Source: a virus. From it: 64,000 bases of DNA. The DNA lies in the IMG/VR virus record IMGVR_UViG_3300042314_000177, positions 4,854 through 68,853 of that record, one strand, 5' to 3'. Positions 98 to 63,894 of the stretch are shown piece by piece. The notes beneath the pieces are model-generated. The model saw nothing but the letters and a program-made list of their open reading frames with translations, had not been told where the DNA came from and ran no database searches. Positions within the stretch are counted from its first letter, which is position 1; each line of letters starts with the position of its first letter. The position numbers and the translations under genes were made by a program.

Positions 98-724
98 TCA
101 ATATCCTCTGCCGATTGCTAGGCCAGCAAACTGTGCTGGGAGCGATAGCGATTGCTGCCAAGCGTTAGCAGCGCCTAATTTTGCACCAGCCTGTGCTGCG
201 CCACCCTGCGCTAACAGACCAGAAATAGCACCAGCCGATTGCATCCCAGCAGTTCCAACGCCAGCAGCCGATTGCTGACCAAGCGAAGTCATGCCGCCAA
301 GTCGTCCGTACTGTTGCTCAAGGAACTGATTTAACAATTGAGGACGGAACTGGGCTAGTGCGCCCTGAATATTTCCGCCACGAAGCCCACCAGTTGCCGA
401 TGCGTTCTGCAAAAGAGCTTCCTCTTGCTGCCGCGCTAAAGCTTGAAACGCTGGGCTTTGCTCTTGTTGAGCTACATATTCTTGCTGTGCTTCTGGGCCA
501 GCAAGACCTAATGCTGCCATCTGCGCCTGAAGAGCAGGGCCACCAGCAGCTACATACGGCTGCAATAACCCACGCATTTCTTCACGAGCAGCCCTTGTTT
601 CAGCGACACCAGCTTGGCTGGCATCATACTGAAGCTGACCAGCGCTCTTTGCGGCTTTAGAACCGACAGCGCTACTCGCTAACTGAGTACCACCAACAAT
701 AAGTGCTGAGACTGGATCAGGCAT
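98..724 (-). CDS. DNA ejection/transfer protein, P22 gp7-like
   Basis: Gly/Ala/Gln-rich; LLQNASATGGLRGGN motif; position after tail hub genes. Confidence 0.85.
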   Translation of the reverse strand: MPDPVSALIVGGTQLASSAVGSKAAKSAGQLQYDASQAGVAETRAAREEMRGLLQPYVAAGGPALQAQMAALGLAGPEAQQEYVAQQEQSPAFQALARQQEEALLQNASATGGLRGGNIQGALAQFRPQLLNQFLEQQYGRLGGMTSLGQQSAAGVGTAGMQSAGAISGLLAQGGAAQAGAKLGAANAWQQSLSLPAQFAGLAIGRGY

Positions 725-1178
725 CAGACATTTCCTTCATATATTCATCAAGGCTTTCGCCATAAAGTTTTAACACAACGTGACCTATTTCCATTGCTGC
801 TTGCGTGCCGTGAACCAACTGCACTGTAGCAAGAACAATATCATAATATCCAGCACGCCAAACAAAACTGGTAGCGCACGCATCACCAGCTAGCTCAACA
901 GTATCAGACGCCTTCCATTTCAGGATTGCAGTGCTGACAAGGGGAAGCAGAACTGTGAAATGGGCTTGATAAAACGGATTAGCTGGCAATCCTACTAGCG
1001 CAGCCCAGATAGCTGCATCCGCATCGTCGCGATCGATCTTGTCGCCATCAACAATATCATCAAAAAGCTGAACAACTTGCCATAGGTCAATTAGCCATTC
1101 AACGGCAGCTTCGGGCAAGTCTAATGCTTCCACAAAGTTCCTACGCAACCAATATTCAGGCGTTCCGCTTTTAAGCAT
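717..1178 (-). CDS. Helical protein with DDxxD motif (isoprenyl-diphosphate/terpenoid synthase-like, putative)
   Basis: WQVVQLFDDIVDGD resembles the first aspartate-rich motif; overlaps the gp7-like start. Confidence 0.55.
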   Translation of the reverse strand: MLKSGTPEYWLRRNFVEALDLPEAAVEWLIDLWQVVQLFDDIVDGDKIDRDDADAAIWAALVGLPANPFYQAHFTVLLPLVSTAILKWKASDTVELAGDACATSFVWRAGYYDIVLATVQLVHGTQAAMEIGHVVLKLYGESLDEYMKEMSDA

Positions 1179-1195: not shown

Positions 1196-1260
1196 TGAGC
1201 CCCAGGCTGCTCTATAACGCTCTGTGGCAAAACCATATCACAATCAATCGTCAAATTCAA
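1196..1260 (-). promoter_or_regulatory. Promoter plus conserved structured leader of the ejection module (A)
   Basis: TTGAAT-N17-TATGGT then GCCACAGAGCGTTATAGAGCAGCCTGGGGCTCA; conserved at 36091-36156 although flanking genes differ. Confidence 0.6.
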
Positions 1261-8700: not shown

Positions 8701-9558
8701 TTAGGTTTTCTTATTACGACGCTTATACTCCATGACCTTTGACAAGTCTCCGGTCTTCAGAGCTTCAGCGCGTAAGCGTTCAAGTTGTGAATCAATGGAA
8801 CCAGACACACGCCCACCGCTTGTGGTGATTGTACGTTCTGGCGAGGTTGATGCCCTACGGTTTGTTACTTTCAACTGAGTCTCCAGTTTTGCTACCGCAA
8901 AGGCAAACTTTACGGGGTCGGTGATTGCTGCAAGTTCCTTAGCTCGCTTAGTGCTTTTGCCAATTGCGTAGATAAGCAAAGCAGGGTTGTCAGAGCCTTG
9001 TAGAACTATCCCTTGTTGCGTGACGTTGAACGTATCTAAAGCCGTTGCTTCAGCTTCGTCATAGTCACGCACCTTTAACGAAGATTTTGCCTTCGCATAG
9101 GAATCAAGCTTGTTCTGCCACGCCTTAGCTTCAGCGTCTTGCTGGGCTTTAGCATTGGCTTCGGCTGCATCGTATTCGCGTTTCTGCTCATACCAGTCAG
9201 CAAGCTTTTGTTCGTACTCGTCGGAATCATAATCGCAATTCTCAAGCGTTGGCTTTGCTACTAGTGCAACTGGTTTGGTCTCAGTTGCTGTGGTACTTAG
9301 CTTTGCTTCTAGTTCGCGTATCTTCCGCTCTTTTTCCCGATTTGATTTACGCAATTCACGCACCCAAGCAGGCGCACGAACTTCTTCATCTTGAGGTGGC
9401 GATTCCTCTCCGATAGATATTACGACTTCATCTTCGTCATCTTCTTCCTCATCATCATCCAGGTCGATGGAATTGGTCTCATCTTCTGCTTGGTCATTGA
9501 TGTCTGTGTCGATGTCGATTGTTTCGATGTTGTCGTTATCCAGTTCTGCCGTTTTCAT
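8701..9558 (-). CDS. Scaffolding protein
   Basis: Acidic N-terminus, coiled coil, basic C-terminal helix; between portal and coat. Confidence 0.85.
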   Translation of the reverse strand: MKTAELDNDNIETIDIDTDINDQAEDETNSIDLDDDEEEDDEDEVVISIGEESPPQDEEVRAPAWVRELRKSNREKERKIRELEAKLSTTATETKPVALVAKPTLENCDYDSDEYEQKLADWYEQKREYDAAEANAKAQQDAEAKAWQNKLDSYAKAKSSLKVRDYDEAEATALDTFNVTQQGIVLQGSDNPALLIYAIGKSTKRAKELAAITDPVKFAFAVAKLETQLKVTNRRASTSPERTITTSGGRVSGSIDSQLERLRAEALKTGDLSKVMEYKRRNKKT

Positions 9559-12872: not shown

Positions 12873-13263
12873 CGATCACTTCACGCTGGATGCGCTGGAT
12901 CATGCTGCCAGTGATACTAAGCTTAGTCGGCTCGTTAAACCCATGCATTACGTTTAGCTCTTTAACGGCTGCTGTCATGCCTGTTGATGTCTTTGCATCC
13001 TGGGCAATACGATACGCTTGTATCAACCCTTTGACAGACATTTCGCGTGTCCATAATTGCTTTTCAACAACCTGTGATTTCAATTCATCAACCCTTATAG
13101 CAACCTTAGGGTTTTTCATCAGGTTGGATGCCTGCACATAAATGCTGGCATCAGATCCAGTCTTAGCGTCATAAGCAGTTCGATAAGCATCTGCTTGCCC
13201 CATGCCATCAGCAATGCATTGAGCGAACAATTCTTGTTTTGCAGTCAACTTATTTTGAGTCAT
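12853..13263 (-). CDS. terS: Terminase small subunit
   Basis: LTAKQELFAQ...ADAYRTAY helix-turn-helix; directly upstream of terL. Confidence 0.85.
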   Translation of the reverse strand: MTQNKLTAKQELFAQCIADGMGQADAYRTAYDAKTGSDASIYVQASNLMKNPKVAIRVDELKSQVVEKQLWTREMSVKGLIQAYRIAQDAKTSTGMTAAVKELNVMHGFNEPTKLSITGSMIQRIQREVIDDNAED

Positions 13264-14599
13264 TGAATGTCTCACCTGTCTCTGCGTGGATAGCTTCCCT
13301 GCCTGTAAATTGCTGCCAACGATTAATGATTAAATCCACATACAACGGGCTTAATTCCAAGCCATATGCGTTTCTTCCATTCTTCTCCGCTGCCATCAGA
13401 GTTGAACCACTCCCCATGAACGGATCGAAAACGACATCATCAGGATCAGTATACGCTTTTATAAAGAACTCTGGAAGACCTACCGGATAAGCAGCCGGAT
13501 GCCCTAATGCCTCAGATTGAAAGGTCGGCAGTCTGTTACCAGGATAAGCCATTCCTGCTGCAACCGCATTACCATCAACGGCAGACACATGGCCTTGGCG
13601 TTGCGCTGCATTGGTGTTGCCAGCGCCCTTCCCCTTTGCTTTAGGAACAGCCTTTGATTCATGCTTCACTGCGTCTGGATTAAACTTCCATTCACCCTTG
13701 GTAAAATGATAGATTGGCTCAAATTGGTTCTTGAACCTTCTTGCAACCTGTTGAGGTATTCCAGCTCTCTCCCAGCAGAACTCATCTGCATAATTCCATT
13801 GCCATTTGCGCGCATGGGCTAACACTAAGTCAAATACATACAGCTCGCGTTTTATGCCTTCAGCATTAGGCTTGATGTTGCAGAAATACGAACCATCGTT
13901 TTCTAGGTTTGCATAAATGTTTGTTGCAATGTCTTCATACCAATCCACATACTCATCAACGTGAATGGGTTTGAAGGATGATTCTTTATCATATTCCCGC
14001 TGTGACGCATACGGAGGAGATGTAACCACCAGGTTAATCATTTTCCCATCAAGAACCTTTGCGACATCGTTGAAGGATTTGCAATCTCCACACATTAACC
14101 TGTGATTGCCCAATATCCAGACATCACCCACAATGGTCTTTGCTGTTTTAGGCATCTCAGGAACAGTGTCTTCATCCACCAATTTAACGGACGGCACTGT
14201 CTCCAGCAATCCATCGAGAAAATCATCATCAAATCCCAACAGCTCTAGGTTGAAGTTCTCTAGGTTAAGGTCTTCAATCTCCGCCTTCAACATATCCATG
14301 TCCCACCCTGCGTTTAGGGCAAGCTGGTTGTCTGCTATCACTAAGGCGCGTTGTTGAGCCTTTGTCAGATGGTCAAGGATAATGGCTGGCACTTCTTCCA
14401 TGCCAAGCTTTCTTGCTGCCAGTAGGCGTCCATGTCCTGCAATGATCGTGTTATCGCCATCTATCAGGATTGGGTTAGTCCAGCCGAACTCTTTTATGCT
14501 GGCTGCGATCTGGGCCACCTGTGCATCGCTGTGCGTGCGGCTGTTGGCGGCATATGGAATTAAATCTGCGACTAGGCGCGTTTCAATCTTTGGTGTCAT
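13250..14599 (-). CDS. ParB-N domain fused to beta-class amino DNA methyltransferase
   Basis: IAASIKEFGWTNPILID..AGHGRL (ParB-N); TSPPY (motif IV); DPFMGSGST (motif I). Confidence 0.9.
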   Translation of the reverse strand: MTPKIETRLVADLIPYAANSRTHSDAQVAQIAASIKEFGWTNPILIDGDNTIIAGHGRLLAARKLGMEEVPAIILDHLTKAQQRALVIADNQLALNAGWDMDMLKAEIEDLNLENFNLELLGFDDDFLDGLLETVPSVKLVDEDTVPEMPKTAKTIVGDVWILGNHRLMCGDCKSFNDVAKVLDGKMINLVVTSPPYASQREYDKESSFKPIHVDEYVDWYEDIATNIYANLENDGSYFCNIKPNAEGIKRELYVFDLVLAHARKWQWNYADEFCWERAGIPQQVARRFKNQFEPIYHFTKGEWKFNPDAVKHESKAVPKAKGKGAGNTNAAQRQGHVSAVDGNAVAAGMAYPGNRLPTFQSEALGHPAAYPVGLPEFFIKAYTDPDDVVFDPFMGSGSTLMAAEKNGRNAYGLELSPLYVDLIINRWQQFTGREAIHAETGETFNDSK

Positions 14600-14669
14600 C
14601 TCAGCTTCCAATAAGGTCTGGTGGAAACCTTCTAGAGCATCTTAGTCACTGTGTCCATAATGTATGAAG

Positions 14670-22661: not shown

Positions 22662-23840
22662 CTAGTCTGCCTCAAGCATTTCTGTGGTTATCATAACCCT
22701 GCCTACAGCACCATACTTTTTATGGTACGTTATTGCCCAGGCTGCTCGATCAGCAATCCAGCCACCACGCGCAGCATAAGCGTCACGCGCTGCCAAGGTT
22801 GGATGCTGAACCACAGTTACGCCGTTATATTCTTTCTCGTCCCTGTGATGGCGATGTCCGCAGTGTATTTCGCGCCTGCTAGTCCTGCCCCATTGCTGCG
22901 GGAACTGTGCCGCAAACAGAAGCGGTAGGCTCTCGTTCTTAACTTTATGACCATGATGGATTCCCAACATAGTGCTGCCCCATTCAAATACATAGAATGG
23001 CAGGACGCTATCGTTGACAGTGACGCGAGGTTCTTCTTCGTAATGCACCGAAAACAAATCAGCCAGCCAGCCGCTTGCTTCTTCGTCGTGATTGCCTTCC
23101 GCTATAATCAGATGCACTTCCTGATGGCGCAGCAAAGACATTGTTACCAGCGATCGAATGACGCGGATTGCAGACTTGCGTATCTTAGGGAAACGGCTGT
23201 CAGCATCCAGAACGTGCTTTGAAGCTGGTGTTACTGGTGTCTTGCCATCCGTATGCAGAAAGTCGCCCTGGATGTTAATAACTGCCGTGTGAGCCTTTGG
23301 GCTTTGTTCTATCATTTGTTGCAGTGCAGCAATGATGGTGCGCTCTGCGATAGATATGTTCCAATCGCTTCCACCCTCTTGATGCCATGCCAGCATTCCA
23401 AGGTGGTAATCAGTGAACGTATAAAGGTTGCACAGATGCTCCTCAGAAGCCGCTGGAGCAACGATTGATACCACAGGCGGTATCTCGTCCTTAAAGCCCT
23501 CAACTGCCTCTCTCATGGCGTCCACAAGAGCCTCATGGCTTAGTGACGCTTTAACCCATTGACCAGATGGTTTGCCTTCAGCGTTGTAGTAGGTGCTGAC
23601 GCCCTTAGCTACATAGCCATCAGGAACAGGTCGAGTGAAGTCATGCTCAGGCGAATAGCCGAACTTTGCAGCCTTGCGCTTCACAGCAAGATAAGTCTCG
23701 CTTGCGCCGCCAATGTTCATGCCTAATTCAGTGGCCGCTGCCCTGGCACTTCCAAGGCGCTCTATGGCCTCAAGAATTTGCTTTTGACGAGGCGTGCAAT
23801 ACCTGTACAGGTTTTCGTCTATCGTTATGATGGATGGCAT
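22662..23840 (-). CDS. HTH plus calcineurin-like metallophosphoesterase
   Basis: TDYHLG, GDFLH, GNHD, HHGH, GHRHH motifs. Confidence 0.85.
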   Translation of the reverse strand: MPSIITIDENLYRYCTPRQKQILEAIERLGSARAAATELGMNIGGASETYLAVKRKAAKFGYSPEHDFTRPVPDGYVAKGVSTYYNAEGKPSGQWVKASLSHEALVDAMREAVEGFKDEIPPVVSIVAPAASEEHLCNLYTFTDYHLGMLAWHQEGGSDWNISIAERTIIAALQQMIEQSPKAHTAVINIQGDFLHTDGKTPVTPASKHVLDADSRFPKIRKSAIRVIRSLVTMSLLRHQEVHLIIAEGNHDEEASGWLADLFSVHYEEEPRVTVNDSVLPFYVFEWGSTMLGIHHGHKVKNESLPLLFAAQFPQQWGRTSRREIHCGHRHHRDEKEYNGVTVVQHPTLAARDAYAARGGWIADRAAWAITYHKKYGAVGRVMITTEMLEAD

Positions 23841-24065: not shown

Positions 24066-24183
24066 TGATGGCCTCATTTATTTCTTTGATTGTTTCCTGA
24101 CGCCCTTGCCGCTTCCAACGATGCTCTGCCCAAACTCCCAACAGCTTGTCCAGAACACCCAGCAAGAGCATCAGGAACTTCAT
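23971..24183 (-). CDS. i-spanin (Rz-like)
   Basis: N-terminal hydrophobic segment plus helical domain; follows the holin. Confidence 0.7.
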   Translation of the reverse strand: MKFLMLLLGVLDKLLGVWAEHRWKRQGRQETIKEINEAINEQIALGEAAIITPDPERTERLRDRFDRSRK

Positions 24184-24365
24184 TACTCTGCGGACTCAGC
24201 TACAGGTTGCTTGCTGAAAACAGACCAAACAGCAACGCCAATGGTAGCTACGGCAGCAGCCAACGCATCAACCGTTGCGCCGTCGATAAGGCCTTTTCCT
24301 GCCAGATAGCCAAAGCCAGCCGCAGCCACTGTACGAACGATTCCAAACAATTGTTCCTTCTTCAT
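24183..24365 (-). CDS. Holin (two TM segments)
   Basis: MKKEQLFGIVRTVAAAGFGYLAGKG...; AAGGA RBS; lysis cassette. Confidence 0.7.
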   Translation of the reverse strand: MKKEQLFGIVRTVAAAGFGYLAGKGLIDGATVDALAAAVATIGVAVWSVFSKQPVAESAE

Positions 24366-24410
24366 GTCATTTTCCTTTACAGTATTGTGGGGAACGTCTA
24401 TTACGTAGTT

Positions 24411-24962
24411 ATGACGCACCGCACTTGTTTTCGCTGCACCCGTTCCTTGGAAGCTACTCCAGGGAATTTCCACCGCGAGAAATCACGCCCATTGGGTTTA
24501 TCATATGAATGCAAGGAATGCCATAGCGAGCGTAAGAAAGGTCGTGACCGCCGCAAAGAGCGCTGGGGTGCACTAACTCCAGAACAAAAAGTATTACGCA
24601 AAGCTAGAATGTTGCGGTATGGACGGACACAACGCGGACGCGCCACATATTTGCGGAACGCATACCAACGTATTGATGAATGCGATTTAACATCATTAGA
24701 GATACTAGAGTTTATAACGCAGCCCTGCGTGTACTGCGGAACTGTTACCGACAACAGGGGGCTGGATAGAATTGACAATAGCTTACCCCACATAAAAGGT
24801 AACGTTCAGACTGCTTGCACTGGCTGCAACATCATGCGCGGGGATAGGTTTACTGTCGAAGAAATGATGTTGATAGGAAAGACAGTCTCCGAAATTCATA
24901 AGACTAGGAATAAGACGCCCTTGGCAATTCAAAGTGAGGGCCATCAGGAAACGACCGACTAA
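24411..24962 (+). CDS. Free-standing Zn-finger/HNH endonuclease, antisense in the lysis cassette
   Basis: CFRC..CKEC, CVYCG...LDRIDNSLPH..GNVQTACTGCN. Confidence 0.85.
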   Translation: MTHRTCFRCTRSLEATPGNFHREKSRPLGLSYECKECHSERKKGRDRRKERWGALTPEQKVLRKARMLRYGRTQRGRATYLRNAYQRIDECDLTSLEILEFITQPCVYCGTVTDNRGLDRIDNSLPHIKGNVQTACTGCNIMRGDRFTVEEMMLIGKTVSEIHKTRNKTPLAIQSEGHQETTD

Positions 24963-30195: not shown

Positions 30196-33100
30196 TCATT
30201 GTGGCATTTCTACTGTTGGTGCTTCGTCTGGTTTAGAACCTACAGCTTCTGTGCCACCAATCGTCGCACCCTTTGCTATTGCAGAGTTCAACCAATTGCG
30301 AGCGTCCTTCATGTCGATGCCAACTAACTTAGCGTAGTCGCTGAACTGCTTACTGCCAGCAACACGATTGATGTTGCGCTCAAGCGCATCGCCAGTTGCT
30401 GCGCTTACTGTTAAATCGCGGAATGGTTCGCTACTTATCAGGTTATGTAACTTCTGAGCATTCGTCTTGCCAAGCCGTTGTGCAATCTCAGGGGCAGCAG
30501 CAGCCAAGCCAGCGCCTGCCACAGCCATGAGAGGGCCACCAAGCACGTTGCCGATCATAGCAGCGCCAGCAGCGCCACCAGATGCCATAAGGATTCTGCT
30601 TAGAAGCCTTTCTGAATTTAGCAGTTGTAGCTGATTTGAAGCACCAGTGCGCGTAATAGCTTTGTCAGCATCGCTCAGACGTCGAGACACAGCATATAGA
30701 TCAGTCAAAAGCTTATCACCTTCTGGGCCAACTGCCTCCGCTACTTGCTTATAAACTGCGCTATTAGCTCGTAGGTCACGATAGATGTTTGCGAAGTTTG
30801 TAAAACTAAATGTCTCGTCAGTTGCTTTTGCTGCCTTGAACAGTGCTGAGGTAAGCACCCTACCGCGCATATTTTCTGGGATGATCTTAACAAGAGTATT
30901 TAGCGTTTGAACGTTACCCTTTGTTCCTTGTGTAATTGCACGCTGCATTAGCGGTGCAAGGCTTCCAGATAGGTTCTTGGTGAAGATCCGCTCCATCTGT
31001 TCGCGGCCTTCATACATCTGCTTGAACAGAGTATTTGCTGCACGCTGCTTGTCAGCAATTTCCTTACCCGCGCTTGCCTCAATGAAATTAATTTGATCGT
31101 CAGCCAAAGCTCCGTAAATGTCTTTTAAACGCTTTATGTTGGTATCCGACCAAGGGCCAGTACCATTCTCAAGCGCCTGACCAATCATGTCTCGATATTC
31201 ATTTAGGGCAGTATATGTTGGATTATCCTTAGAGATAGAAGACCATAGTTTCTTTTCTTCTCCAGAAAGGTTCATAATTCCTTTCTTGCCGCCACCTAAA
31301 AGACGAATGCGTTCTTGCAGATAAGATTTAATTTTATCACTGCTTACTGTGCCAGCAGCATCAATTGAATCAGTAACTTCATCACGTAATACACCAGCCT
31401 TCTTACCGAGGCCCTTTTGAGCATTATCCAGTTGGTCGAATACGTCAGCCGACACTTGCGAAATGTCAGTGACAGCATCTAGTTCATCCATTGCCTTATG
31501 AGCGCGTTCCGATGCAGCCTGAACAGTTTCGTTCCAAACTTCCTTTGCCTGAGAAGCGATTTGTGCGCGTGTTAAGCCAACGACTTCTTTCAATTGAGAA
31601 TTATCACTAAGAACATCGACTGGAAGTTCAAGGCCAAGACGATCAGCAGCAGCCTTTGCCTCTGGATTAGTCTTTGCCATCTCAGCCAATTGAGCTCGTG
31701 CCTTTGAAGCACCAGGCCCACGACTAACAGCTTTCTGAGCTAAGTCGATCATTCCTTCAGTGCTAATCTGAGCAGCTACGTCTTCTACCGCTTCACCAGC
31801 GATGGGCGCGGCCATACCAGCAGTAGGCGGAGCCATGCCAGTAGGCGCACCAGTTGGGATATCGAATCCAGTTGGTGACGGAGCCGCTTGTCCGCCCATA
31901 CCAATATCAGGAACCATGCCTGTAGGCACTTCCCCCGTTACATTAACAAATTCACCTTCAGGTATACCAGTCCCATCTGGAGCCATCCCATCTGGAGCAG
32001 CGCCACCTGGCATAAAGCGTCGAGCAGCAGCACCAAATCCTGATTGCAATATGCCTCCAGCAGCAGCGGTTTTTGCACGCTCTAAAGCACTAGCGTCAGG
32101 CCGTCCTTCGCCGCCGCCATAAATGCCACCCTCAACGATGTCTCGTACTACTGGGCCTCCAGGAATAAACTTTGTAAGCTTGTTAACGGGAGACACAATG
32201 CTGCTTGGTATTTCAGCAAGCATAGATGTTATTGGATAATTCTCCATGCTATACTCACCAGCAGCCTGGAGCTTTGCAGCAGCTTCTGGGGACTTAAATA
32301 CTGTAGAAAGAATTTCTTCCCCAAGATTACTTGTGAATCCACGAACAGCAGCTGTACCAATAGCGGTTTCCATTCCTGGAGCAGATGGTTCACGTATGCC
32401 TGAACGATTAGGAGTGAATCTAATTGTGCGCTGTGGATCTTCGCTTAGAGCCTTAACCGTTTCTGCGCTGAGGGGATTTCCACCAGTCAACTCTATAGCC
32501 TTGGCATTAACTTCATCAAGTGTTCTGCCAGCAGCCCACATCCCCTGAAGCTCGCTTGCTATGGAAATATCTTTATCAGTTGAGAACTTATCGCCTTCAG
32601 CAACTTTAAGCACAGGGACGCCACCAGCGGTTTCAGCTTCCGCACCGCCCATGACCTTTAAGAAATTTTCTTTTATTCTGTCTTTGTAAGCGTTAGCAAA
32701 ATCTTCACCAATAACAGCGTCTGGATTAACATTGTAAGTCGGGTCTGTAGAAAGTTGTCTAAACCGATTACGCGCAAAGTCATATGCAAGTCTATCAGAC
32801 GCAATCAAATCTCTCGTTGCGATAAGAAACTGGCGGCGAGCTTGTGGAGATACAAACCCAGATTCTGGGTCATAAAGACCCTTCAAATCAGTTATGGTTC
32901 TATCAATAGAAGTTTGAATATCTTTAGTTGTTTCAAATTCTCCGCCCAACACGCCAGTGCTGGGGTCTTTGATTTTGCTACCTAATGTAATTAAAAAATT
33001 GTCATCAGCTTTGCTTGGATTAGTGCGGCTGGCAATCGTCACCATAGTATCAAATATAGGCAAAACCTTTTGATATTTAACTACAGCAGGCTCAGTTCCA

Positions 33101-33396
33101 TACTTTGAAAAAAGAGATTCAAATTTTGTTCGACCTTCAGTTTCAACACCCTTCTGTTCTTGGCGTTTAGCAAGGTCAGCTGCTTCCTGAGCTAATCGCA
33201 AGCGTTCTTCGTCGCGTGTCTCACCAGAAACCTTGCGACTTTCTTCAGCTATCTGCTCAGGCGACCTTGGAATATCAATGACATTAATTTTCGGAATCGA
33301 AAGCTTTTCACGAGGCACGCCACCCTGAACAATGTATTTTTTGCCATCGCTACCTGTGAGCTGATCACCTTCTTTGTACTTAACTGCCATAATCAA
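30196..33396 (-). CDS. Large DNA ejection protein (P22 gp16 position)
   Basis: 1066 aa, helical, last gene before the tailspike. Confidence 0.7.
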   Translation of the reverse strand: MIMAVKYKEGDQLTGSDGKKYIVQGGVPREKLSIPKINVIDIPRSPEQIAEESRKVSGETRDEERLRLAQEAADLAKRQEQKGVETEGRTKFESLFSKYGTEPAVVKYQKVLPIFDTMVTIASRTNPSKADDNFLITLGSKIKDPSTGVLGGEFETTKDIQTSIDRTITDLKGLYDPESGFVSPQARRQFLIATRDLIASDRLAYDFARNRFRQLSTDPTYNVNPDAVIGEDFANAYKDRIKENFLKVMGGAEAETAGGVPVLKVAEGDKFSTDKDISIASELQGMWAAGRTLDEVNAKAIELTGGNPLSAETVKALSEDPQRTIRFTPNRSGIREPSAPGMETAIGTAAVRGFTSNLGEEILSTVFKSPEAAAKLQAAGEYSMENYPITSMLAEIPSSIVSPVNKLTKFIPGGPVVRDIVEGGIYGGGEGRPDASALERAKTAAAGGILQSGFGAAARRFMPGGAAPDGMAPDGTGIPEGEFVNVTGEVPTGMVPDIGMGGQAAPSPTGFDIPTGAPTGMAPPTAGMAAPIAGEAVEDVAAQISTEGMIDLAQKAVSRGPGASKARAQLAEMAKTNPEAKAAADRLGLELPVDVLSDNSQLKEVVGLTRAQIASQAKEVWNETVQAASERAHKAMDELDAVTDISQVSADVFDQLDNAQKGLGKKAGVLRDEVTDSIDAAGTVSSDKIKSYLQERIRLLGGGKKGIMNLSGEEKKLWSSISKDNPTYTALNEYRDMIGQALENGTGPWSDTNIKRLKDIYGALADDQINFIEASAGKEIADKQRAANTLFKQMYEGREQMERIFTKNLSGSLAPLMQRAITQGTKGNVQTLNTLVKIIPENMRGRVLTSALFKAAKATDETFSFTNFANIYRDLRANSAVYKQVAEAVGPEGDKLLTDLYAVSRRLSDADKAITRTGASNQLQLLNSERLLSRILMASGGAAGAAMIGNVLGGPLMAVAGAGLAAAAPEIAQRLGKTNAQKLHNLISSEPFRDLTVSAATGDALERNINRVAGSKQFSDYAKLVGIDMKDARNWLNSAIAKGATIGGTEAVGSKPDEAPTVEMPQ

Positions 33397-33758
33397 TCAC
33401 CATATCTTTTACGAGAACGACTTACGTCAGGAGCCTTACCCCAACCAGGGAAGGTTATATGTAATGCGCCTTTGTTACTAGCAGCAACGCGAGTGCCTGG
33501 ATATGTTCGTTTTACTAAGGCAATCGCTTCAGACATCTTCATTCCTTTTGGCGGGAAAAAGTCAAGACCGTCACCTTTTTGGTGCGATCCCGTCTTTGTT
33601 GTTGTCAAACCCTGCGCCCTTAATGCATCTTGGTGCTTTTGCGTCCTGAATCCACTTGTTGGACTAAAGCCAAGTGCGCCTAAATCCTTTATTGGGTTAA
33701 TGTTACTACCCTTAAAAGGTACCAGACTGCGTTGTGCTAGTCTGACCTCCTGTATCAT
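33393..33758 (-). CDS. M15-like peptidoglycan peptidase domain, probably expressed by +1 frameshift
   Basis: TSGFRT...SHQKGDGLDF...ALHI; +1 frame relative to the upstream gene. Confidence 0.7.
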   Translation of the reverse strand: MIQEVRLAQRSLVPFKGSNINPIKDLGALGFSPTSGFRTQKHQDALRAQGLTTTKTGSHQKGDGLDFFPPKGMKMSEAIALVKRTYPGTRVAASNKGALHITFPGWGKAPDVSRSRKRYGD

Positions 33759-34467
33759 CAATTGTAAAAGTAACCTCAGGAGGGGCTTCATTGCCAGTAA
33801 CATTACCTATGAAACTCTCAGCATTTACAATTTTACCACCAGGCTGAACGGGAATAAGTTTCATACCCTCAGTTTTTAACCATGTATCTGCTGCCGCCTT
33901 GCCTAAAATACGCACGCGATCCTGATACTCTTTACCTACAGGCGAAAGGTTTTGAGTTATGCCAACAACCTTCTCGTATAAATCTTTGTCGCTTTGAATT
34001 AAAGCTAGTTCCATTGGAAGCACTACAAGGTCAGGGTCTGTATCAAAGGCTGTTATCATATCTTGGGCTGCTTTTGCTTGTTTTTCCTGCCCTACTGTTC
34101 CTTGATAACCTTCCAATTGCTTTTTTAAACGAGCGCGAGCTAACTCACGCTTGCCGTTCTTTACTAAAGTAATGACTTCTGAGCGAAGCAAATTTGCGTT
34201 CTTTTTTTCATCTTCATTCAAAATAGATTCTGACGCCTTGATCTGGTCATTAAGTTCAGGGAACGCCATCGCTAGTCGTGCTAAGTTAGGAGCCGATCTA
34301 TCTTGTTGATACGATGCCATCGCTTGCTTTATCTCCGCAGCGCGTTGCTGCTTTAAGACAGCAGCCTGTTCAGCACGTTGCCTTTGCTCTTGAGCTTGAG
34401 CAAAGTTAAGCGAGCCTTCGAAAGCTGCCATAGGGCTTGCAATGTTATAGTTAAATGGATCAGGCAT
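33712..34467 (-). CDS. DNA ejection protein (P22 gp20 position)
   Basis: Helical Gln/Ala-rich, coupled to the gp7-like gene. Confidence 0.7.
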   Translation of the reverse strand: MPDPFNYNIASPMAAFEGSLNFAQAQEQRQRAEQAAVLKQQRAAEIKQAMASYQQDRSAPNLARLAMAFPELNDQIKASESILNEDEKKNANLLRSEVITLVKNGKRELARARLKKQLEGYQGTVGQEKQAKAAQDMITAFDTDPDLVVLPMELALIQSDKDLYEKVVGITQNLSPVGKEYQDRVRILGKAAADTWLKTEGMKLIPVQPGGKIVNAESFIGNVTGNEAPPEVTFTIDDTGGQTSTTQSGTF

Positions 34468-35183
34468 TAGAATGTTCTCTGGTTTATATTAGACATAGTG
34501 AAGCCACTAGGCCCAATCATTCCGCTTTGTGGTGGCACTGGAGGCGTTGGAACGCCCGATGGAGTCACGGGTGGCTTAAACAGCCCTGGTAGCTGTCCAC
34601 CTATAGTGCCGATTGCCTGATTAAAGGCATTGGCCTGTCCTAATATACCACCAGCTTGTGCTTGTCCCGCTTGCGTATATGCGTTGCCAATATTGGTTGC
34701 AGAGTTAAGTGTATTGGTTGCAACGCCAGCAGCAGAGGCTTGGCCAAGAGTTGAAAGCCCAGCCAAACGTCCATATTGCTGATCTAAAAACTGAGTCAAT
34801 AATGCGGGGCGAAACTGAGCTAATGCGCCCTGAATGTTGCCGCCGCGAAGTCCACCAGTTGCTGATGCGTTTTGCCGAATGGCATCCTCTCCTTGTGCAG
34901 CCAATGCCTGAAAGAATGGGCTTTGCTCTTGCTGCGATATATAGGCTTGCTGTGCTTCTGGGCCTGACAGACCCAATGACGCCATCTGAGCTTGCAAGGC
35001 TGGTGTGCCAGCGGACACATACGGGTTAAGCAGCGTCCGCATTTCCTCACGAGCCGCACGCTGTTCGTCTGCTGTTCTGTCAGCCGCCGCAAGTTGTGTT
35101 TTACTCGCTCTTTTAGAGGCACTAATTGACACCCCTGCGCCGATGATGGCGCTACCGATTGTTGCCGCTGCTACCGCACTCAT
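34467..35183 (-). CDS. DNA ejection protein, P22 gp7-like
   Basis: QNASATGGLRGGN; homologue of 98-724. Confidence 0.85.
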   Translation of the reverse strand: MSAVAAATIGSAIIGAGVSISASKRASKTQLAAADRTADEQRAAREEMRTLLNPYVSAGTPALQAQMASLGLSGPEAQQAYISQQEQSPFFQALAAQGEDAIRQNASATGGLRGGNIQGALAQFRPALLTQFLDQQYGRLAGLSTLGQASAAGVATNTLNSATNIGNAYTQAGQAQAGGILGQANAFNQAIGTIGGQLPGLFKPPVTPSGVPTPPVPPQSGMIGPSGFTMSNINQRTF

Positions 35184-35184
35184 A

Positions 35185-36072
35185 TCAATATCCCCCTATC
35201 GTCACTATCAAAGCCTGACGATAATCTACTGTAATTTCTTCGCCGTTGCTGCCGCCCTTGCATCCTGAGATGTCGCGCATTGCAACAACATATATATCAC
35301 CATTTTCCATACGGAACATCATTGCATTCGGATTCTTAGAATGGTTGGTGTAGCGCCCTGCTGGTGTGCGTAGTCCGCCCATCAATGCTGGCGCAATTAC
35401 CTCAAACTGTGGAATGTTACCAGATGCAAACAATCCTTTGCCTTCGATCTGGCTATCACCCAGCGCAACTTTATACTCGCCATGCGGAAACGGAATCTGG
35501 TCATATTGTAATTCAGATATTTCCCGCACTGTTTCAGCGTCAAAGCCAAACTCCTCAATCGCTGCGTAAAAGTCAGCAATGTCTTCAGAGTGATCAAAGC
35601 TTAACAGCATTTGGTTAAACTTCTTTGATTCCTGCCATGACTCGCTTTTGTCTAAGAACATTTCATCAAGCGTATCAACGTCACGCTCGTCGGTTGAAAA
35701 GATGTTCTGCCAAATCACATCTTCATGGATATAGGCTATCTTGCGGCCAGGAGGTGCGATGAACGACTGTGGGGCCACTAGCTCTGTCTTTGTGCCATCG
35801 TCATTTAAGATAGTCAGGCGACCAGATAGCATATTGTTGAAATGGGCAGTCTTGTGATGATGGCCTACTATATATGAATCCGCTGGCATACGAACTTCAC
35901 GAATGTAAATGCCTGGAGCAAAGCGATGTGTAATAGGGCAGTCAGCTTGTGGTAGGTCAAGAAGTGCCGACTCTAGACGCTGAACATCAGCTTCATTGAA
36001 AGCCTTTGTGAAAGGCTCAATAAGAACGCTTTCAACTGTATCAATGTCTTTTGTGCGGCATATTGCAGTCAC
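35185..36072 (-). CDS. Cupin domain fused to SET domain (putative methyltransferase)
   Basis: HRFAPGIYIRE...GHHHKTAH (cupin); SQIEGKGLFA...RYTNHSKNPN...GEEITVDY (SET). Confidence 0.85.
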   Translation of the reverse strand: MTAICRTKDIDTVESVLIEPFTKAFNEADVQRLESALLDLPQADCPITHRFAPGIYIREVRMPADSYIVGHHHKTAHFNNMLSGRLTILNDDGTKTELVAPQSFIAPPGRKIAYIHEDVIWQNIFSTDERDVDTLDEMFLDKSESWQESKKFNQMLLSFDHSEDIADFYAAIEEFGFDAETVREISELQYDQIPFPHGEYKVALGDSQIEGKGLFASGNIPQFEVIAPALMGGLRTPAGRYTNHSKNPNAMMFRMENGDIYVVAMRDISGCKGGSNGEEITVDYRQALIVTIGGY

Positions 36073-36090: not shown

Positions 36091-36156
36091 TGAGCCACAG
36101 GCTGCTCTTTAAGGCTCTGTGGCAAAACCATATCACAATTTGTTTGCCTTTGGCAA
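36091..36156 (-). promoter_or_regulatory. Promoter plus conserved structured leader of the ejection module (B)
   Basis: TTGCCA-N18-TATGGT then GCCACAG-N16-CTGTGGC-TCA. Confidence 0.6.
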
Positions 36157-36259
36157 TAAAGTATCTTAATTATCATCACGCAGCTTACCTGACGGGGGAC
36201 AGGCGACTCATCATCGCTTGCTGTAATTTTCCTGATGCAGCACTTTGATGAGGTGTTTT

Positions 36260-36742
36260 ATGATTACTCAAGAACGTTTGCGTGAGCTTGTCCGCTATTG
36301 CCCTGAGACTGGCATATTTACCCACCTCGAAAGCAATCGTCGCAAGAAAGCTGGAATGCAAGCTGGATCGTTGCGAAAAGATGGCTATGTTTACATTATG
36401 ATTGATGGGCATAGAACTATGGCTCATAGATTTGCATGGATGTATATAACTGGTAAATGGCCTATTGCTGATATTGACCATGTAGACGGTAATAAATCTA
36501 ACAACTCATTTAATAATCTTCGTGACGTTTCTCGCAGTGTAAACGCTCAAAATCAAAATAGGGCAAAGCGAACAAGCAAAACTGGATACCTAGGTGTTCG
36601 TTATCATGGGCCTAATAAATTTGTTGCCGCAATCTCCGTTAATGGCAAAAGCATTTACCTTGGTGTTTTTGGCGATTCATTAGATGCCCACAATGCTTAT
36701 CTGACAGCGAAACGTAAACTACATGAGGGATGTGTAATTTAA
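36260..36742 (+). CDS. HNH-AP2-like homing endonuclease (B only, antisense)
   Basis: AHRFAW...IDHVDGNKSNN...NLR; SKTGYLGV...YLGVF. Confidence 0.9.
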   Translation: MITQERLRELVRYCPETGIFTHLESNRRKKAGMQAGSLRKDGYVYIMIDGHRTMAHRFAWMYITGKWPIADIDHVDGNKSNNSFNNLRDVSRSVNAQNQNRAKRTSKTGYLGVRYHGPNKFVAAISVNGKSIYLGVFGDSLDAHNAYLTAKRKLHEGCVI

Positions 36743-37134
36743 TCCTCATCTTCACGTTCTTCCCAAGCCTGACACGCTCTCATGTCGTGACAAATAAATT
36801 CAAATTTTTCACAATATCCACGATAACCTGCGTCTACATCCCATGCGTTCCACGGAATTTTATCCATTTTTGATTGCATAAGCGTTGAGTTAATAAAATA
36901 CTCGCAGTTAGAACATCTGCGCCGACGAGCTTCAGTCTCATCCACTTGCATAGCTACACCCAAGGCCACCCAGTATTCAGGATTAGCGCCACGCTCGTTG
37001 CTTGGGTTTTCAGGGCCAAGCATCCAATCGTCAATGACGATCTTCGTGTTCTTCTTGTTCTCAGCAGTGGTGATGAATGGTTCGCTTTCACGCAGACCAG
37101 CAAAGCCTTCAATAATCATCATTGGCTTTTTCAT
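36739..37134 (-). CDS. Cys-rich protein, HiPIP-like cysteine pattern
   Basis: Homologue of 1244-1645; ends CQAWE. Confidence 0.6.
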   Translation of the reverse strand: MKKPMMIIEGFAGLRESEPFITTAENKKNTKIVIDDWMLGPENPSNERGANPEYWVALGVAMQVDETEARRRRCSNCEYFINSTLMQSKMDKIPWNAWDVDAGYRGYCEKFEFICHDMRACQAWEEREDED

Positions 37135-58572: not shown

Positions 58573-59751
58573 TTAAGCTACCTCGAGCATCTCAGTGGTA
58601 ATCATCACCCGCCCTACGGCTCCGTATTTTTTATGGTACGTTATTGCCCAGGCTGCTCGATCAGCAATCCAGCCTCCACGCGCCGCATAAGCATCACGCG
58701 CTGCCAAGGTTGGATGCTGAACGACTGTTACCCCATTATACTCTTTCTCGTCCCTGTGGTGTCTGTGACCGCAGTGTATCTCTCTGCGGGTGGTTCTGCC
58801 CCATTGCTGGGGAAACTGTGCCGCAAACAAGAGCGGTAGGGATTCATTCTTGACCTTATGCCCATGATGAACGCCTAGCATGGTGTTGCCCCATTCAAAC
58901 ACATAGAATGGTAGAACGCTATCGCTGACAGTGACGCGAGGTTCTTCCTCGTAATGCACAGCAAACAAATCAGATAGCCAGCCGCTGCTTTCTTCGTCGT
59001 GATTGCCTTCTGCTATAATCAGATACACTTCCTGATGGCGCTGCAAAGATATAGCTACCAGTGATCGAATGATGCGGATTGCTGCCCTGCGAATCTTTGG
59101 GAATCGGCTATCAGCATCCAGAACGTGTTTGCTTGCTGGCGTTACAGGTGTCTTGCCATCCGTATGCAGAAAGTCTCCCTGAATATTTAATACTGCCGTG
59201 TGCGCCTGGGGGCTTTGATTGATCATCTGAGCAAGTGCAGCAAGAATAGTTTTTTCTGCCAGCGATACATTCCAATCGCTTCCACCCTCTTGATGCCACG
59301 CCAGCATACCTAAATGGTAATCCGTAAACGTATAAAGGTTGCATAGAAGCTCGTCAGAAGCCTCAGGAGCAACGATAACGCTTGCTGGGTCTATTTGATC
59401 CTTAAATCCATCAACTGTCTCTCTCAGGGCTTCTATGAGCGCCTCATGCGTCAATGATGCCTTTACCCATTGACCAGATGGTTTGCCTTCAGCATTATAA
59501 TAGGTCGATACGCCTTTTGTGACATAACCTTCTGGCACGGGTCGCGTGAAATTATGACTAGGAGAGTATCCCCGCAACTCCGCTTTCTTTTTCACTGCAA
59601 CATAGGCGTCACTTGCTGCGCCCACATTGATACCTAATGCAATAGAGGCGGCTTTGGCGCTTCCATGTAGATTAACTGCTTCAAGCACCTCGCGCTGGCG
59701 GGGCGTTGCATATTGAAACAACGCTTCATCTATTTTTAATGGGAAAGCCAT
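58573..59751 (-). CDS. HTH plus metallophosphoesterase
   Basis: Homologue of 22662-23840. Confidence 0.85.
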   Translation of the reverse strand: MAFPLKIDEALFQYATPRQREVLEAVNLHGSAKAASIALGINVGAASDAYVAVKKKAELRGYSPSHNFTRPVPEGYVTKGVSTYYNAEGKPSGQWVKASLTHEALIEALRETVDGFKDQIDPASVIVAPEASDELLCNLYTFTDYHLGMLAWHQEGGSDWNVSLAEKTILAALAQMINQSPQAHTAVLNIQGDFLHTDGKTPVTPASKHVLDADSRFPKIRRAAIRIIRSLVAISLQRHQEVYLIIAEGNHDEESSGWLSDLFAVHYEEEPRVTVSDSVLPFYVFEWGNTMLGVHHGHKVKNESLPLLFAAQFPQQWGRTTRREIHCGHRHHRDEKEYNGVTVVQHPTLAARDAYAARGGWIADRAAWAITYHKKYGAVGRVMITTEMLEVA

Positions 59752-61488: not shown

Positions 61489-63060
61489 CTATATCGTTGA
61501 ACTTGCGTAGTAGGTAAATGAACCATAAATCACCGATCCAGTAACCGCAGGATATGTGCTGTCGTATTTTCTAATTACGAAAGTGCTGAATGTAGGCGCA
61601 GCCGTAACAAGGCACATTCCAGCGGTGCTGCTTACAGCGGTTCCGCTTGCGCCTATTGTGCTGGAACAAGGGAAGGGCATAACATCTTCGACAGTGATTG
61701 TTGCGGAGCCAGTACCATTATCAGCCACAGTAAACGTGAAATACACTGTTATCTGATTGCCGTTTTTGACCCAACTAGCTTCGCCGTTAGTAACCGATGT
61801 AATTGTACCCGCGCTGGATGCAACGGTTGGCGTAACTGTATCTCTGCCTTGACCAGCAACGCGCCGCAAGCGGGGATGGTCTGGGATAGCAAAGGCAGTC
61901 AGAGTATTGGATTTATTTTCAACAAGCACATACGAAGGATCAGCCGAAGAAAGACTGCCCCACAGGTTGTTGAAAAAGTCCGCAGAAAGATTGTTGCCGC
62001 CGATGTTAATATAACCGACAGATTGCAAACCAGCGTCAACGACATATGATGCCGAAGACGTAAAGTTCTGCATATTCAGAACAGACCAAGAGGATTGGGC
62101 TGAAGACAAAACATTTTCGCACCTATTGTTTTCAGCGTACAGGCTTACAAATGTGTTAGCATAGCTGTTAAACAGAAACGCAGTATCCTGCCAATATTGC
62201 CCAATGACATTGATCGTAGCAGAGTTTGAGCCAACTGCCGCAGCCGCAGCAATCGTCACGCCTTTTGTAGATGCGTTGTGAGACGAGTCCATATAAAAAT
62301 CGGTTGTAAAACTGGCCCCAGTAGGCATCCATGATGGGATGTTACCTACTGGAATCGTCAAATCACTTGGGTCAATAATCTTATCGAACTGACCTTGAAC
62401 CGAAATGTTGTTGTTCGCATTATACGCCATCAAACCATAATAGTTTGTCAGCGATGTGATGTTGCTGATGGTCGTGCCGAAACAAGTGTTAAGTTGGACG
62501 CCAACGCCAAATCCTAAAATGCTAACGTCAGAAATTATAGCGTTAGGGCAACCGATCAAACGGATAGCCCCGTAGACTACGTTGGTCTGCAAACTTGCGT
62601 TTGCGTCAAATATGTACAAGCCTTTAATAGCTACGTTATGCAAGCTGTTGTAGGTTGTATCAATCGCAGCATCTACAAAAGCATTGTACGCTACTGGCAG
62701 GCCAGTAGATGTTATGTACGTTGCGCTGTCTATAGCCCATTTGCTGTTGCTTGCGCCAAAGTCAGCGGTAATTCTGCTGATATGTGCGTTAGCGCCCACA
62801 AAGGGATAGCCACCAGCACCATCGCCTAAAAGAGTAATGCCATACCCAATACGAATTGTGTCTGTGATACGGTAGTTGCCAGCAGGAAAATATACCGTTC
62901 CGCTACCATTACTCGTAGCCGATGAAGTGACAGAAAGCGAGTCAATAGCTGCCTGAATAGCCGCTGTGTCATTGGCTGTTCCATCGCCAACCGCGCCGAA
63001 GTCAAGCACATTGACAACAGCGCCGTTAATCATTGAGTAAGTAGCTTTAGTCAGCGTCAT
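61489..63060 (-). CDS. Tail spike (beta helix)
   Basis: VNVLDFGAVGDGTANDTAAIQAAID; body unrelated to the A allele. Confidence 0.85.
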   Translation of the reverse strand: MTLTKATYSMINGAVVNVLDFGAVGDGTANDTAAIQAAIDSLSVTSSATSNGSGTVYFPAGNYRITDTIRIGYGITLLGDGAGGYPFVGANAHISRITADFGASNSKWAIDSATYITSTGLPVAYNAFVDAAIDTTYNSLHNVAIKGLYIFDANASLQTNVVYGAIRLIGCPNAIISDVSILGFGVGVQLNTCFGTTISNITSLTNYYGLMAYNANNNISVQGQFDKIIDPSDLTIPVGNIPSWMPTGASFTTDFYMDSSHNASTKGVTIAAAAAVGSNSATINVIGQYWQDTAFLFNSYANTFVSLYAENNRCENVLSSAQSSWSVLNMQNFTSSASYVVDAGLQSVGYINIGGNNLSADFFNNLWGSLSSADPSYVLVENKSNTLTAFAIPDHPRLRRVAGQGRDTVTPTVASSAGTITSVTNGEASWVKNGNQITVYFTFTVADNGTGSATITVEDVMPFPCSSTIGASGTAVSSTAGMCLVTAAPTFSTFVIRKYDSTYPAVTGSVIYGSFTYYASSTI

Positions 63061-63069
63061 GAAAAATCC

Positions 63070-63894
63070 TTACACAAAATATGTTAGCGTTATGCTAACA
63101 TTTGCAACAGCGCCTTGCGCTTCCACTGAAAAAACTGTGTTTGTGCCGGCGGTGATAACCGAAAAGCTGGTCGTGTAGTTTGAGTTATGTCCACTGCCAG
63201 TACATTCAAAACCAGTTTTTGCGGTAAATGGAAGGTTTGTAAATAGTACCGCAGCCCCCGAAGCCCACGCAATGCTGGTTGCTCCTTGAAGAAAAACTTG
63301 AACAGTTATCATGTTTCCGTATCTGACGTATCGTCCAGATGAAGAAAACGCACCTACGACAACTAGTCCGCCACCTTGGTTTGGTGTAAAAACACCTTCT
63401 TCATACCAGTTCAGCAATTCGCTGGTCATGCCAGCAGCGTGCGTGTTTGCGCTGAAGTCGATGCCTTTGCCAGCAGTGCCGATTATGAGGTTGTTGTTTG
63501 ACACCGTAAGTCCGTTGGCATCTAACAACGCACCCCTAGTTGAGCCATAAATAAGCTCCAGATAGTCAAAGTCGCCGCCCGATTGCTGGCCAACTGCCCA
63601 TCTCTGAACACTTGAGTTGTACCCACGAACAAGCGTAAATCCAGCAGCGGGTGTACAATTTATACCAAGATACGCGCCATTGCCTTCAGCGGTCAACTGA
63701 TGTCCAGAAAGCGCGACAGTAGTGCCGAGAGTGGCCAAACCAGCTTCCAATTTAGACATTGAAACTGTGCGGCCAGCGGTCACGTTGTCTATACTAACCT
63801 TTACAGTTGATCCACCCTGCACAATCGGCAAGACTTCTGTGCCTGCAAGTGGTGTTGTAGCTGCGGTTAACGCTGAGATTTTTTTATCTGCCAT
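63070..63894 (-). CDS. Tail fibre protein
   Basis: N-terminus and GKGIDFSANT..AGMTSELL linker shared with 27230-28105. Confidence 0.75.
   Translation of the reverse strand: MADKKISALTAATTPLAGTEVLPIVQGGSTVKVSIDNVTAGRTVSMSKLEAGLATLGTTVALSGHQLTAEGNGAYLGINCTPAAGFTLVRGYNSSVQRWAVGQQSGGDFDYLELIYGSTRGALLDANGLTVSNNNLIIGTAGKGIDFSANTHAAGMTSELLNWYEEGVFTPNQGGGLVVVGAFSSSGRYVRYGNMITVQVFLQGATSIAWASGAAVLFTNLPFTAKTGFECTGSGHNSNYTTSFSVITAGTNTVFSVEAQGAVANVSITLTYFV

Follow-up and report, generated by a model that had tools for sequence, protein, structure and literature searches.

Ejection proteins and the slot upstream of gene 7

Short-tailed phages rely on ejection proteins to cross the Gram-negative envelope. 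In phage P22, gene 14, which is essential, lies at 8911-9366 directly before gene 7, which begins at 9369. According to the P22 record, host OpdA removes 20 residues from the N-terminus of gp7, and a preprint (10.64898/2026.09.03.749273) describes gp7* as the active, channel-forming form. The subject of this analysis is the position directly upstream of a gp7-like gene, referred to here as the slot, in a 64-kb window (the whole stretch of DNA that was analyzed) from the virus record IMG/VR IMGVR_UViG_3300042314_000177. The window contains two related podophage genome copies, A and B, whose slots hold non-homologous proteins, a 295-amino-acid (aa) fusion of a cupin and a SET domain in copy B (35185..36072, minus strand, GTG start) and a 153-aa all-helical protein with a DDxxD motif in copy A (717..1178, minus strand). 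At this locus the slot gene is exchanged together with the N-terminal leader of the gp7-like protein encoded downstream of it.

Several described systems resemble parts of this arrangement. The P22 gene 14 protein is alike in its position directly before gene 7, its small size and its enzyme fold. It belongs to PF11039 (DUF2824) and phrog_651 ('head morphogenesis'), and its family profile matches solved GNATs (8fv0, E 1.8e-9) as well as RimJ/RimL-type entries at 1e-4 to 1e-2 (3igr, E 1.3e-4; 8gxk, E 2.9e-3). Neither slot protein of the window, however, matches phrog_651 or PF11039, one being a cupin joined to a SET domain and the other a helical DDxxD protein. T7 gene 13 (phrog_308, internal virion protein A) is comparable in position, since the genes on either side of it encode tail tubular protein B and the first internal core protein; no sequence relation to the cupin was found, and homology was rejected (hhalign probability 0.1%). 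Stand-alone cupins annotated as 'short tail fiber' or 'tail fiber adhesin' (phrog_12032 and phrog_24280; Ralstonia phages RSK1 ORF13 and phiAp1 ORF43) occupy the same position and are homologous to residues 27-159 of the B protein but have no SET domain. Minimal SET methyltransferases, such as PBCV-1 vSET (3kma) and the SET cores of MLL and EZH2, resemble the B protein in Pfam score, invariant motifs and VIA Z, whereas the B protein is fused to a cupin, is encoded in the late virion-gene block of a phage and carries a GCKGG insert. Trans-prenyltransferases and the small subunits of heteromeric hepta/hexaprenyl diphosphate synthases dominate the VIA rows of the A protein, whose DDxxD ends a long helix as in farnesyl diphosphate synthase (FPPS); the A protein differs from them in being half their size, with 8 helices, a single Asp-rich motif and nothing significant in Foldseek. 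Leader-guided peptide tailoring and capsid-targeting propeptides are similar in outline, in that a removable leader (shown for P22 gp7 only) stands beside a class-matched protein; none of the recognition domains or proteases of those systems was found here, nor was any tested for.

No paper dealing with a cupin, SET or DDxxD protein at the slot, with the fusion or with a link to the leader came up in the literature search. Nothing found by that search, which left older P22 genetics largely beyond its reach, explained the function of P22 gp14 or the reason for the cleaved gp7 leader. The families themselves are already present in PHROGs as 'unknown' or 'short tail fiber'. These are large families, with 1518 relatives of the cupin-SET protein in a collection of 5.8 billion proteins and 1151 cluster representatives of the DDxxD protein at E <= 0.001.

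Exchange of the slot gene together with the gp7 leader

Copies A and B lie head-to-tail with an offset of ~35.5-35.9 kb, and their late genes are all on the minus strand. Copy A begins before base 1 and ends at ~25.4 kb, copy B spans ~25.85 to 61.3 kb, and the two are 72-83% identical over the compared parts. In a blastn comparison they share 77% identity across the three genes upstream of the slot, a homology whose last segment is a 49-bp block with 94% identity (A 1244-1196 = B 36139-36091). The slot gene and codons 1 to 42-44 of gp7 are without homology, which resumes beyond them at A 592 = B 35057 (72.5%). The non-homologous DNA reaches from the 49-bp block to about codon 43 of gp7, so that the slot is exchangeable and its gene moves as one unit with the gp7 leader. 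An earlier note on this DNA had claimed that unrelated genes share one locus, that the gp7 cores are homologous with different N-termini and that the whole amounts to a swappable enzyme-plus-leader cassette, and the comparison of the two copies agrees with it on the first two points and on the exchange of slot gene and leader as a unit.

The first ejection protein of copy B is 238 aa long (34467..35183, minus strand; phrog_598, E 3e-34), and codons 1-42, which encode its class-specific leader (35058..35183, minus strand), lie inside the non-homologous cassette. Its counterpart in copy A is 208 aa long (98..724, minus strand; phrog_598, E 3e-26), with codons 1-44 (593-724) specific to the cassette. 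The two proteins are 56-60% identical, and in an alignment the class-specific part of gp7 matches the P22 propeptide in position.

The slot stop codon in copy B lies 1 nt before the gp7 ATG, and in copy A the slot gene and gp7 overlap by 8 nt, arrangements which suggest that the two genes are translationally coupled. The linkage is far beyond chance. Among viral contigs, the gene right after a cupin-SET slot gene is gp7-like in 79 of 80 loci, the single miss being cut by the contig end, and the match to the gp7 hidden Markov model (HMM) begins -13 to +1 nt from the slot gene. DDxxD loci have a downstream open reading frame (ORF) in 78 of 80 cases and a gp7-HMM match in 74 of 80. Slot stop and gp7 start are coupled in all 79 cupin-SET and all 78 DDxxD loci, and the 8-nt overlap is present in 70 of the latter 78. 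Within the overlap (copy A 717-724; L197-L276) the last two slot codons and the stop share bases with gp7 Met-Pro-Asp/Glu, which ties the slot C-terminal [D/N/H]-Ala to the gp7 Met-Pro. Two further loci (L095:1838-3100 and L109:1514-3049) have no separate slot gene, and the phrog_598 part stands at the C-terminal end of 420-aa and 511-aa frames; either these are slot-gp7 fusions or the frames are over-long in GC-rich DNA.

The 49-bp block (36091..36139 in copy B, 1196..1244 in copy A, both minus strand) forms the left edge of the cassette, and its 94% identity between the copies compares with ~77% for the flanking genes. Relatives also have it, 19-21 nt upstream of the slot gene, at 14 of 24 cupin-SET loci, 17 of 30 GNAT loci and 2 of 18 DDxxD loci. 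Features of the block are an imperfect inverted repeat and TGnTATGGT, which resembles an extended -10. The earlier description of a shared promoter/leader holds insofar as the block is shared; a promoter in it is not supported, with 1 promoter-like site against 1.8 expected by chance. Its interpretation as a structured RNA was likewise unsupported (z -0.05 and 0.60).

Next to the block, copy B carries an insert that is absent from copy A (~36140-36751). Within it is an HNH-AP2 homing-endonuclease gene (36245..36742; PF13392, E 2.8e-13; phrog_99, E 1e-58) on the plus strand, opposite to the late genes, between the block and the gene for a 131-aa protein with weak zinc-binding-domain matches (36739..37134, minus strand). 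The latter is the conserved upstream flank of the slot, with a copy A counterpart at 1244-1645. The homing endonuclease could promote exchange at this spot.

The cupin-SET protein of copy B

The B slot protein matches phrog_34170 ('unknown function') over its full length (E 5e-86). Residues 27-159 match phrog_12032 (E 5e-34), the N-terminal half also matches phrog_24280, and the Pfam SET family PF00856 matches residues 239-284 with 32 bits against a cut-off of 22.4 (E 1.8e-7). An AlphaFold2 model (pLDDT 82.9) places beta-barrel strands at residues 47-125, after which a helical linker leads to a SET domain that starts near residue 195, and Foldseek searches with this model return both cupins and SET domains (MLL1 SET, E 2.5e-5).

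The SET domain comprises approximately residues 195-289 (35206..35490, minus strand). G211, G213, R240, N243, H244, E279, D283 and Y284 are invariant in 30 homologues that are 53-90% identical, and the GxG, R..NH and E..DY motifs are all intact, with the conserved GCKGG insert preceding the last of them. Of these SET motifs, we take GxG to be the one that binds S-adenosylmethionine (SAM) and E..DY to supply the C-terminal catalytic Tyr. VIA aligns 80 residues with the MLL3 SET domain (Z 10.9, root mean square deviation 1.7, 34% identity), and vSET follows at Z 9.9. The domain is predicted to be an intact SAM-dependent lysine methyltransferase, a prediction which extends to methyl transfer itself and which is drawn from the motifs and the model.

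The cupin-fold beta-barrel (approximately residues 40-130; 35683..35955, minus strand) is homologous to the stand-alone proteins of phrog_12032. For this part Foldseek finds cupin_2 proteins (3d82, 3lag and 2fqp; E ~1e-4, target TM 0.58-0.65) and oxalate decarboxylase. No Pfam cupin family matches the B protein at E <= 0.01; its relative phiAp1 ORF43 matches Cupin_2 at E 0.0035, with 17.4 bits against 27.2. Cupins are defined by two motifs that carry His/Glu metal ligands. These canonical ligands are not conserved here, as H71, H73 and H77 become A, K, Q or Y in relatives, and the only invariant residues in the cupin part across 9 diverse members are R58, E59, G70, G84, G93, F104 and G109. Oxidation by the cupin, which had been among the reactions suggested for this protein, is unlikely because the canonical His/Glu ligands vary across the wider family. 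Degenerate catalytic residues had also been named as a finding that would speak against a modifying enzyme; the SET residues are kept across the homologues and the canonical cupin ligands are not.

Most matched phage records, about 60 of 70 in a tblastn search, contain the cupin N-domain alone. The full fusion was found in 8 phage records, including Rhodoferax phage P26218, phage zth2-2, three spring-water contigs and Pseudoalteromonas phage PH1. At one locus (L103:888-2483) the ORF before gp7 is 531 aa long and the cupin-SET match spans residues 10-275 only, with ~255 further residues after the SET domain.

The DDxxD protein of copy A

The A slot protein belongs to phrog_21390 and has no Pfam match. 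It has 130 close relatives, and D40, D41, D44 and W88, the first three within an FDDxxDGD motif, are invariant in 54 sequences down to 25% identity. A tblastn search at E 1e-5 found it in no named phage. The structural model (pLDDT 92.7) has 8 helices with the DDxxD at the end of a long helix.

Searches with the model and the family profile point weakly to trans-prenyltransferases. The top 26 rows of a wide VIA search are all prenyl or isoprenoid synthases, although such Z values can arise by chance for helical bundles. The best of them is the small subunit of heptaprenyl diphosphate synthase (5h9d_D; Z 10.0, 144 of 153 residues aligned). An Atlas lead, component A of hexaprenyl diphosphate synthase (HexPS) at 0.79, goes weakly in the same direction. 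A PDB profile search with the family gave FPPS only, at a non-significant E of 0.3, aligned on its two Asp-rich helices, and Foldseek found nothing significant (best E 1.0). The A protein has about half the length of an isoprenoid synthase (153 aa versus about 260-350 aa), and the alignments contain only one DDxxD, with neither a second Asp-rich motif nor an NSE/DTE motif. Prenylation by this protein, as had been proposed, is speculative because the protein is half-size and has one Asp-rich motif only.

Slot occupants in other phages

Sixty of 66 viral-contig loci with close gp7 relatives were usable, and in this close set the slot holds the cupin-SET protein 17 times, the DDxxD protein 16 times and a third occupant of 172 aa 27 times. 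The third occupant is a GNAT (phrog_1249), its profile matching 4j3g at E 2.2e-8. An hhalign comparison found no link between this family and the gp14 family (probability 8%), though both match solved GNATs. Thirty-four more distant genome loci have gp14-like proteins, GNATs, cupins with or without SET, DDxxD proteins and a few unclassified small proteins, the gp14-family members being those of L078, L080, L092, L093, L099 and L102. Three of the four occupant families, the SET proteins and the two kinds of GNAT, are thus recognizable from profiles and models as enzymes, and the DDxxD family resembles one weakly. The claim that the occupants have enzyme folds, and with it the placing of a GNAT-fold gene 14 in the slot of P22, is upheld by the intact SET motifs, the invariant DDxxD and the two GNAT families.

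The association of the cupin with gp7 extends well beyond close relatives. In all five annotated phage contexts inspected, the cupin gene stands directly before a gene for 'DNA ejection' or the first internal virion protein, and the T7-like phage phiAp1 has it where T7 carries gene 13. The adjacency of cupin and gp7 is kept from 90% down to 21-34% gp7 identity and into the Autographiviridae. A pair of cassettes similar to that of the window occurs on one 38-kb IMG/VR contig (L018/L120 and L203), with the DDxxD cassette at one end and the cupin-SET cassette ~33 kb away.

Leader classes and their association with the slot gene

Within the 60 loci of the close set, the start of gp7 follows the slot occupant with no exceptions: cupin-SET proteins are accompanied by MSAVAAA.. 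leaders, DDxxD proteins by MP.P.. and GNATs by MAIGT.., and gp7 proteins of all classes converge on a shared core motif near residue 42. Larger samples give a similar picture. All 79 gp7-HMM matches found by scanning from a cupin-SET occupant start with MS[AGS][VIL]A, and the leaders linked to DDxxD proteins begin with MPxP in 74 of 78 cases and have Pro at position 2 in 77. Across 93 classed rows, an MS start is found in 31 of 33 cupin-linked leaders versus 3 of 60 others, and an MPxP start in 19 of 19 DDxxD-linked leaders versus none of 74 others.

Residues 1-10 are the best conserved part of 64 distinct cupin-SET-linked gp7 proteins (0.65, versus 0.32-0.46 for residues 11-200). Ser2 is invariant in 47 of 47 distinct starts of this class, with both TCN and AGT codons in use. 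Given this conservation and the class-distinct starts, the leader is the part of gp7 that varies least within a class and differs most from one class to another.

On the best tree of 99 gp7 cores the class changes 14 times, and the starred branches force at least 4, 3 and 2 changes. Local switches include the sisters L099 (gp14-like, MPVAAVV..) and L104 (cupin-SET, MSGIATAVV..), joined with 99% support, and L078, which lies inside the RSK1 clade. The supported independent pairs number 3 for cupins, 2 for DDxxD proteins and 4 for GNATs, and all change in the expected direction.

Possible roles of the slot protein

The reading that we favor, tentatively and at somewhat less than an even chance, takes the slot protein for a maturation partner of gp7 that is specific for the leader, with the cupin of copy B binding, and its SET domain methylating, an ejection protein. 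The position upstream of the first ejection gene, of the P22 gene 7 type, would be occupied by a gene whose product serves that ejection protein as a dedicated partner. This product would read the class-specific leader of the ejection protein, and its gene would be inherited and exchanged with the leader as a single cassette. The cupin barrel of copy B may be the binding module, because cupins are mostly stand-alone in these phages and have no conserved metal site, and the target of the SET domain, an active addition to it, would be gp7 or an ejection protein that assembles with gp7, methylated ahead of packaging. For copy A, the partner would be a half-size isoprenoid-synthase-like protein that needs its invariant DDxxD for its activity, whatever that is. 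The anatomy of the locus, its fold assignments and conserved motifs, the close linkage of the genes, the borders of the cassette and the class-specific leaders are observed; we infer the leader binding, the catalysis, the substrate and the removal of the leader, the last of which is known only for P22.

Several observations weigh against a leader-reading partner. On the core tree of the close set, 2 changes suffice for the three classes, so the perfect table of leaders and occupants is not independent evidence. The independent pairs of the wider tree are not significant (p 0.25, 0.5 and 0.125 for cupin, DDxxD and GNAT, respectively), and with only 2-4 well-supported independent switches the covariation is consistent with the idea but is not statistically proven. 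The covariation of enzyme class with the gp7 N-terminus that the earlier note had predicted is therefore seen in the raw tables but does not reach significance once shared ancestry is corrected for. Sixteen of 65 SET-linked gp7 proteins lack a Lys between residues 15 and 45 and the leaders share no conserved lysine, which argues that the substrate is not an obvious conserved lysine of the leader. All leaders are hydrophobic and rich in Ala, Gly and Val, and their conservation could thus partly reflect a membrane role rather than recognition. In the DDxxD class, codons 1-3 of gp7 share the 8-nt overlap with the end of the slot gene and are thus tied to it. Finally, L081, L087, L089, L101 and L112 have only small unclassified upstream genes and L111 and L113 have none recognizable, which indicates that a slot protein of these classes is not universal. 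When the cupin-SET protein was co-folded with gp7 residues 1-70 and SAM, without controls, the scores were 0.01 and 0.14, the mark being 0.32, a result that speaks neither for nor against binding.

Alternatively, every occupant could be a leader-guided enzyme that covalently modifies gp7 itself, by acetylation in the case of the GNATs, by lysine methylation in that of SET and by a diphosphate-dependent reaction in that of the DDxxD protein. By analogy with leader-guided peptide tailoring and its later removal of the leader, each enzyme would read the matching gp7 propeptide and modify gp7 at or near the N-terminus before packaging, after which the propeptide would be removed. Such a modular, leader-addressed scheme is rather unlikely, as is the covalent modification of gp7 by all occupants on which it depends. 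A tailoring system, if true, would explain what P22 gene 14 and the cleaved gp7 leader are for. Tailoring is favored by the bona fide enzyme folds of three occupant families out of four and the catalytic-type motifs kept in SET and DDxxD, and also by the fixed residue after the initiator Met in each class (Ser in cupin-SET, Pro in all but one DDxxD-linked leader) and the match of the gp14-family profile to RimJ/RimL-type protein N-terminal acetyltransferases (3igr and 8gxk). Covalent tailoring is harder to reconcile with the cupin, which is alone in the slot in most phages and has no conserved metal site, with the lack of a conserved lysine near the leader, and with a DDxxD protein that amounts to half an isoprenoid synthase with one Asp-rich motif.

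A third explanation, which we regard as quite improbable, supposes no functional tie between slot protein and leader. A recombination-prone spot would gather unrelated accessory or structural genes, a real short tail fiber for example, and the leader differences would reflect hitch-hiking of a weakly constrained hydrophobic N-terminus. The conserved flanks could drive such exchange and a homing endonuclease stands beside the slot in copy B; class labels cluster on the tree, and the covariation loses significance after phylogenetic correction. A weakly constrained N-terminus does not, however, agree with the first 10 residues of gp7 being the best conserved within a class and with Ser2 being held across both Ser codon families, nor does a chance gathering of genes agree with start/stop coupling at every one of the 79 and 78 loci or with a cupin-gp7 adjacency that persists to 21-34% gp7 identity and into the Autographiviridae.

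Least probable of all is that slot proteins are effectors which enter the capsid by way of the gp7 leader and are ejected to modify host targets, such as a host protein methylated by SET: the slot gene does head the ejection module in translational coupling with gp7, T7 gene 13, placed likewise, carries the annotation of an internal virion protein and a SET substrate is not evident in gp7, but a search for virion proteomics of a cupin, SET or DDxxD occupant found none, and P22 gp14 is not known to be a virion component. The 'short tail fiber' name of the stand-alone cupins is, according to PMC8703784, an annotation with no experiment behind it.

Other features of the window

The ejection module of copy B continues downstream of gp7 with genes for 251-aa, 136-aa and 1066-aa proteins (30196..34467, minus strand), the largest of which matches phrog_6704 and phrog_770 ('DNA transfer protein'). 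The 136-aa ORF (33393-33803, minus strand) has a weak endolysin-like match (phrog_465, E 5.8e-4) and overlaps the preceding 251-aa ORF by ~90 nt as called; judged by this match, it may encode a small cell-wall hydrolase among the ejection proteins.

Elsewhere in the window, PHROG matches identify a terminase, a portal, a major head protein, a P22 gp10-like hub ('head closure Hc3'), gp7-like 'DNA ejection' proteins and a large DNA-transfer protein. Neither a tRNA nor an integrase was found in the 64 kb. Two 392-aa proteins (22662-23840 and 58573-59751) were considered as integrases, which would have made the copies prophages, and were rejected as such, both being phrog_704 'DNA repair exonuclease'. 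A third genome copy is represented by tail-spike-like genes at 61489-63894. The head-to-tail layout may reflect a tandem prophage or a concatemer, or else co-occurring variants joined during assembly. Copy A also encodes a ParB-like nuclease fused to a DNA methyltransferase (13250-14611, minus strand; phrog_498, E 7e-114), and an endonuclease VII/HNH gene (24090-24962) lies on the plus strand, opposite to the late genes, at the junction of copies A and B.
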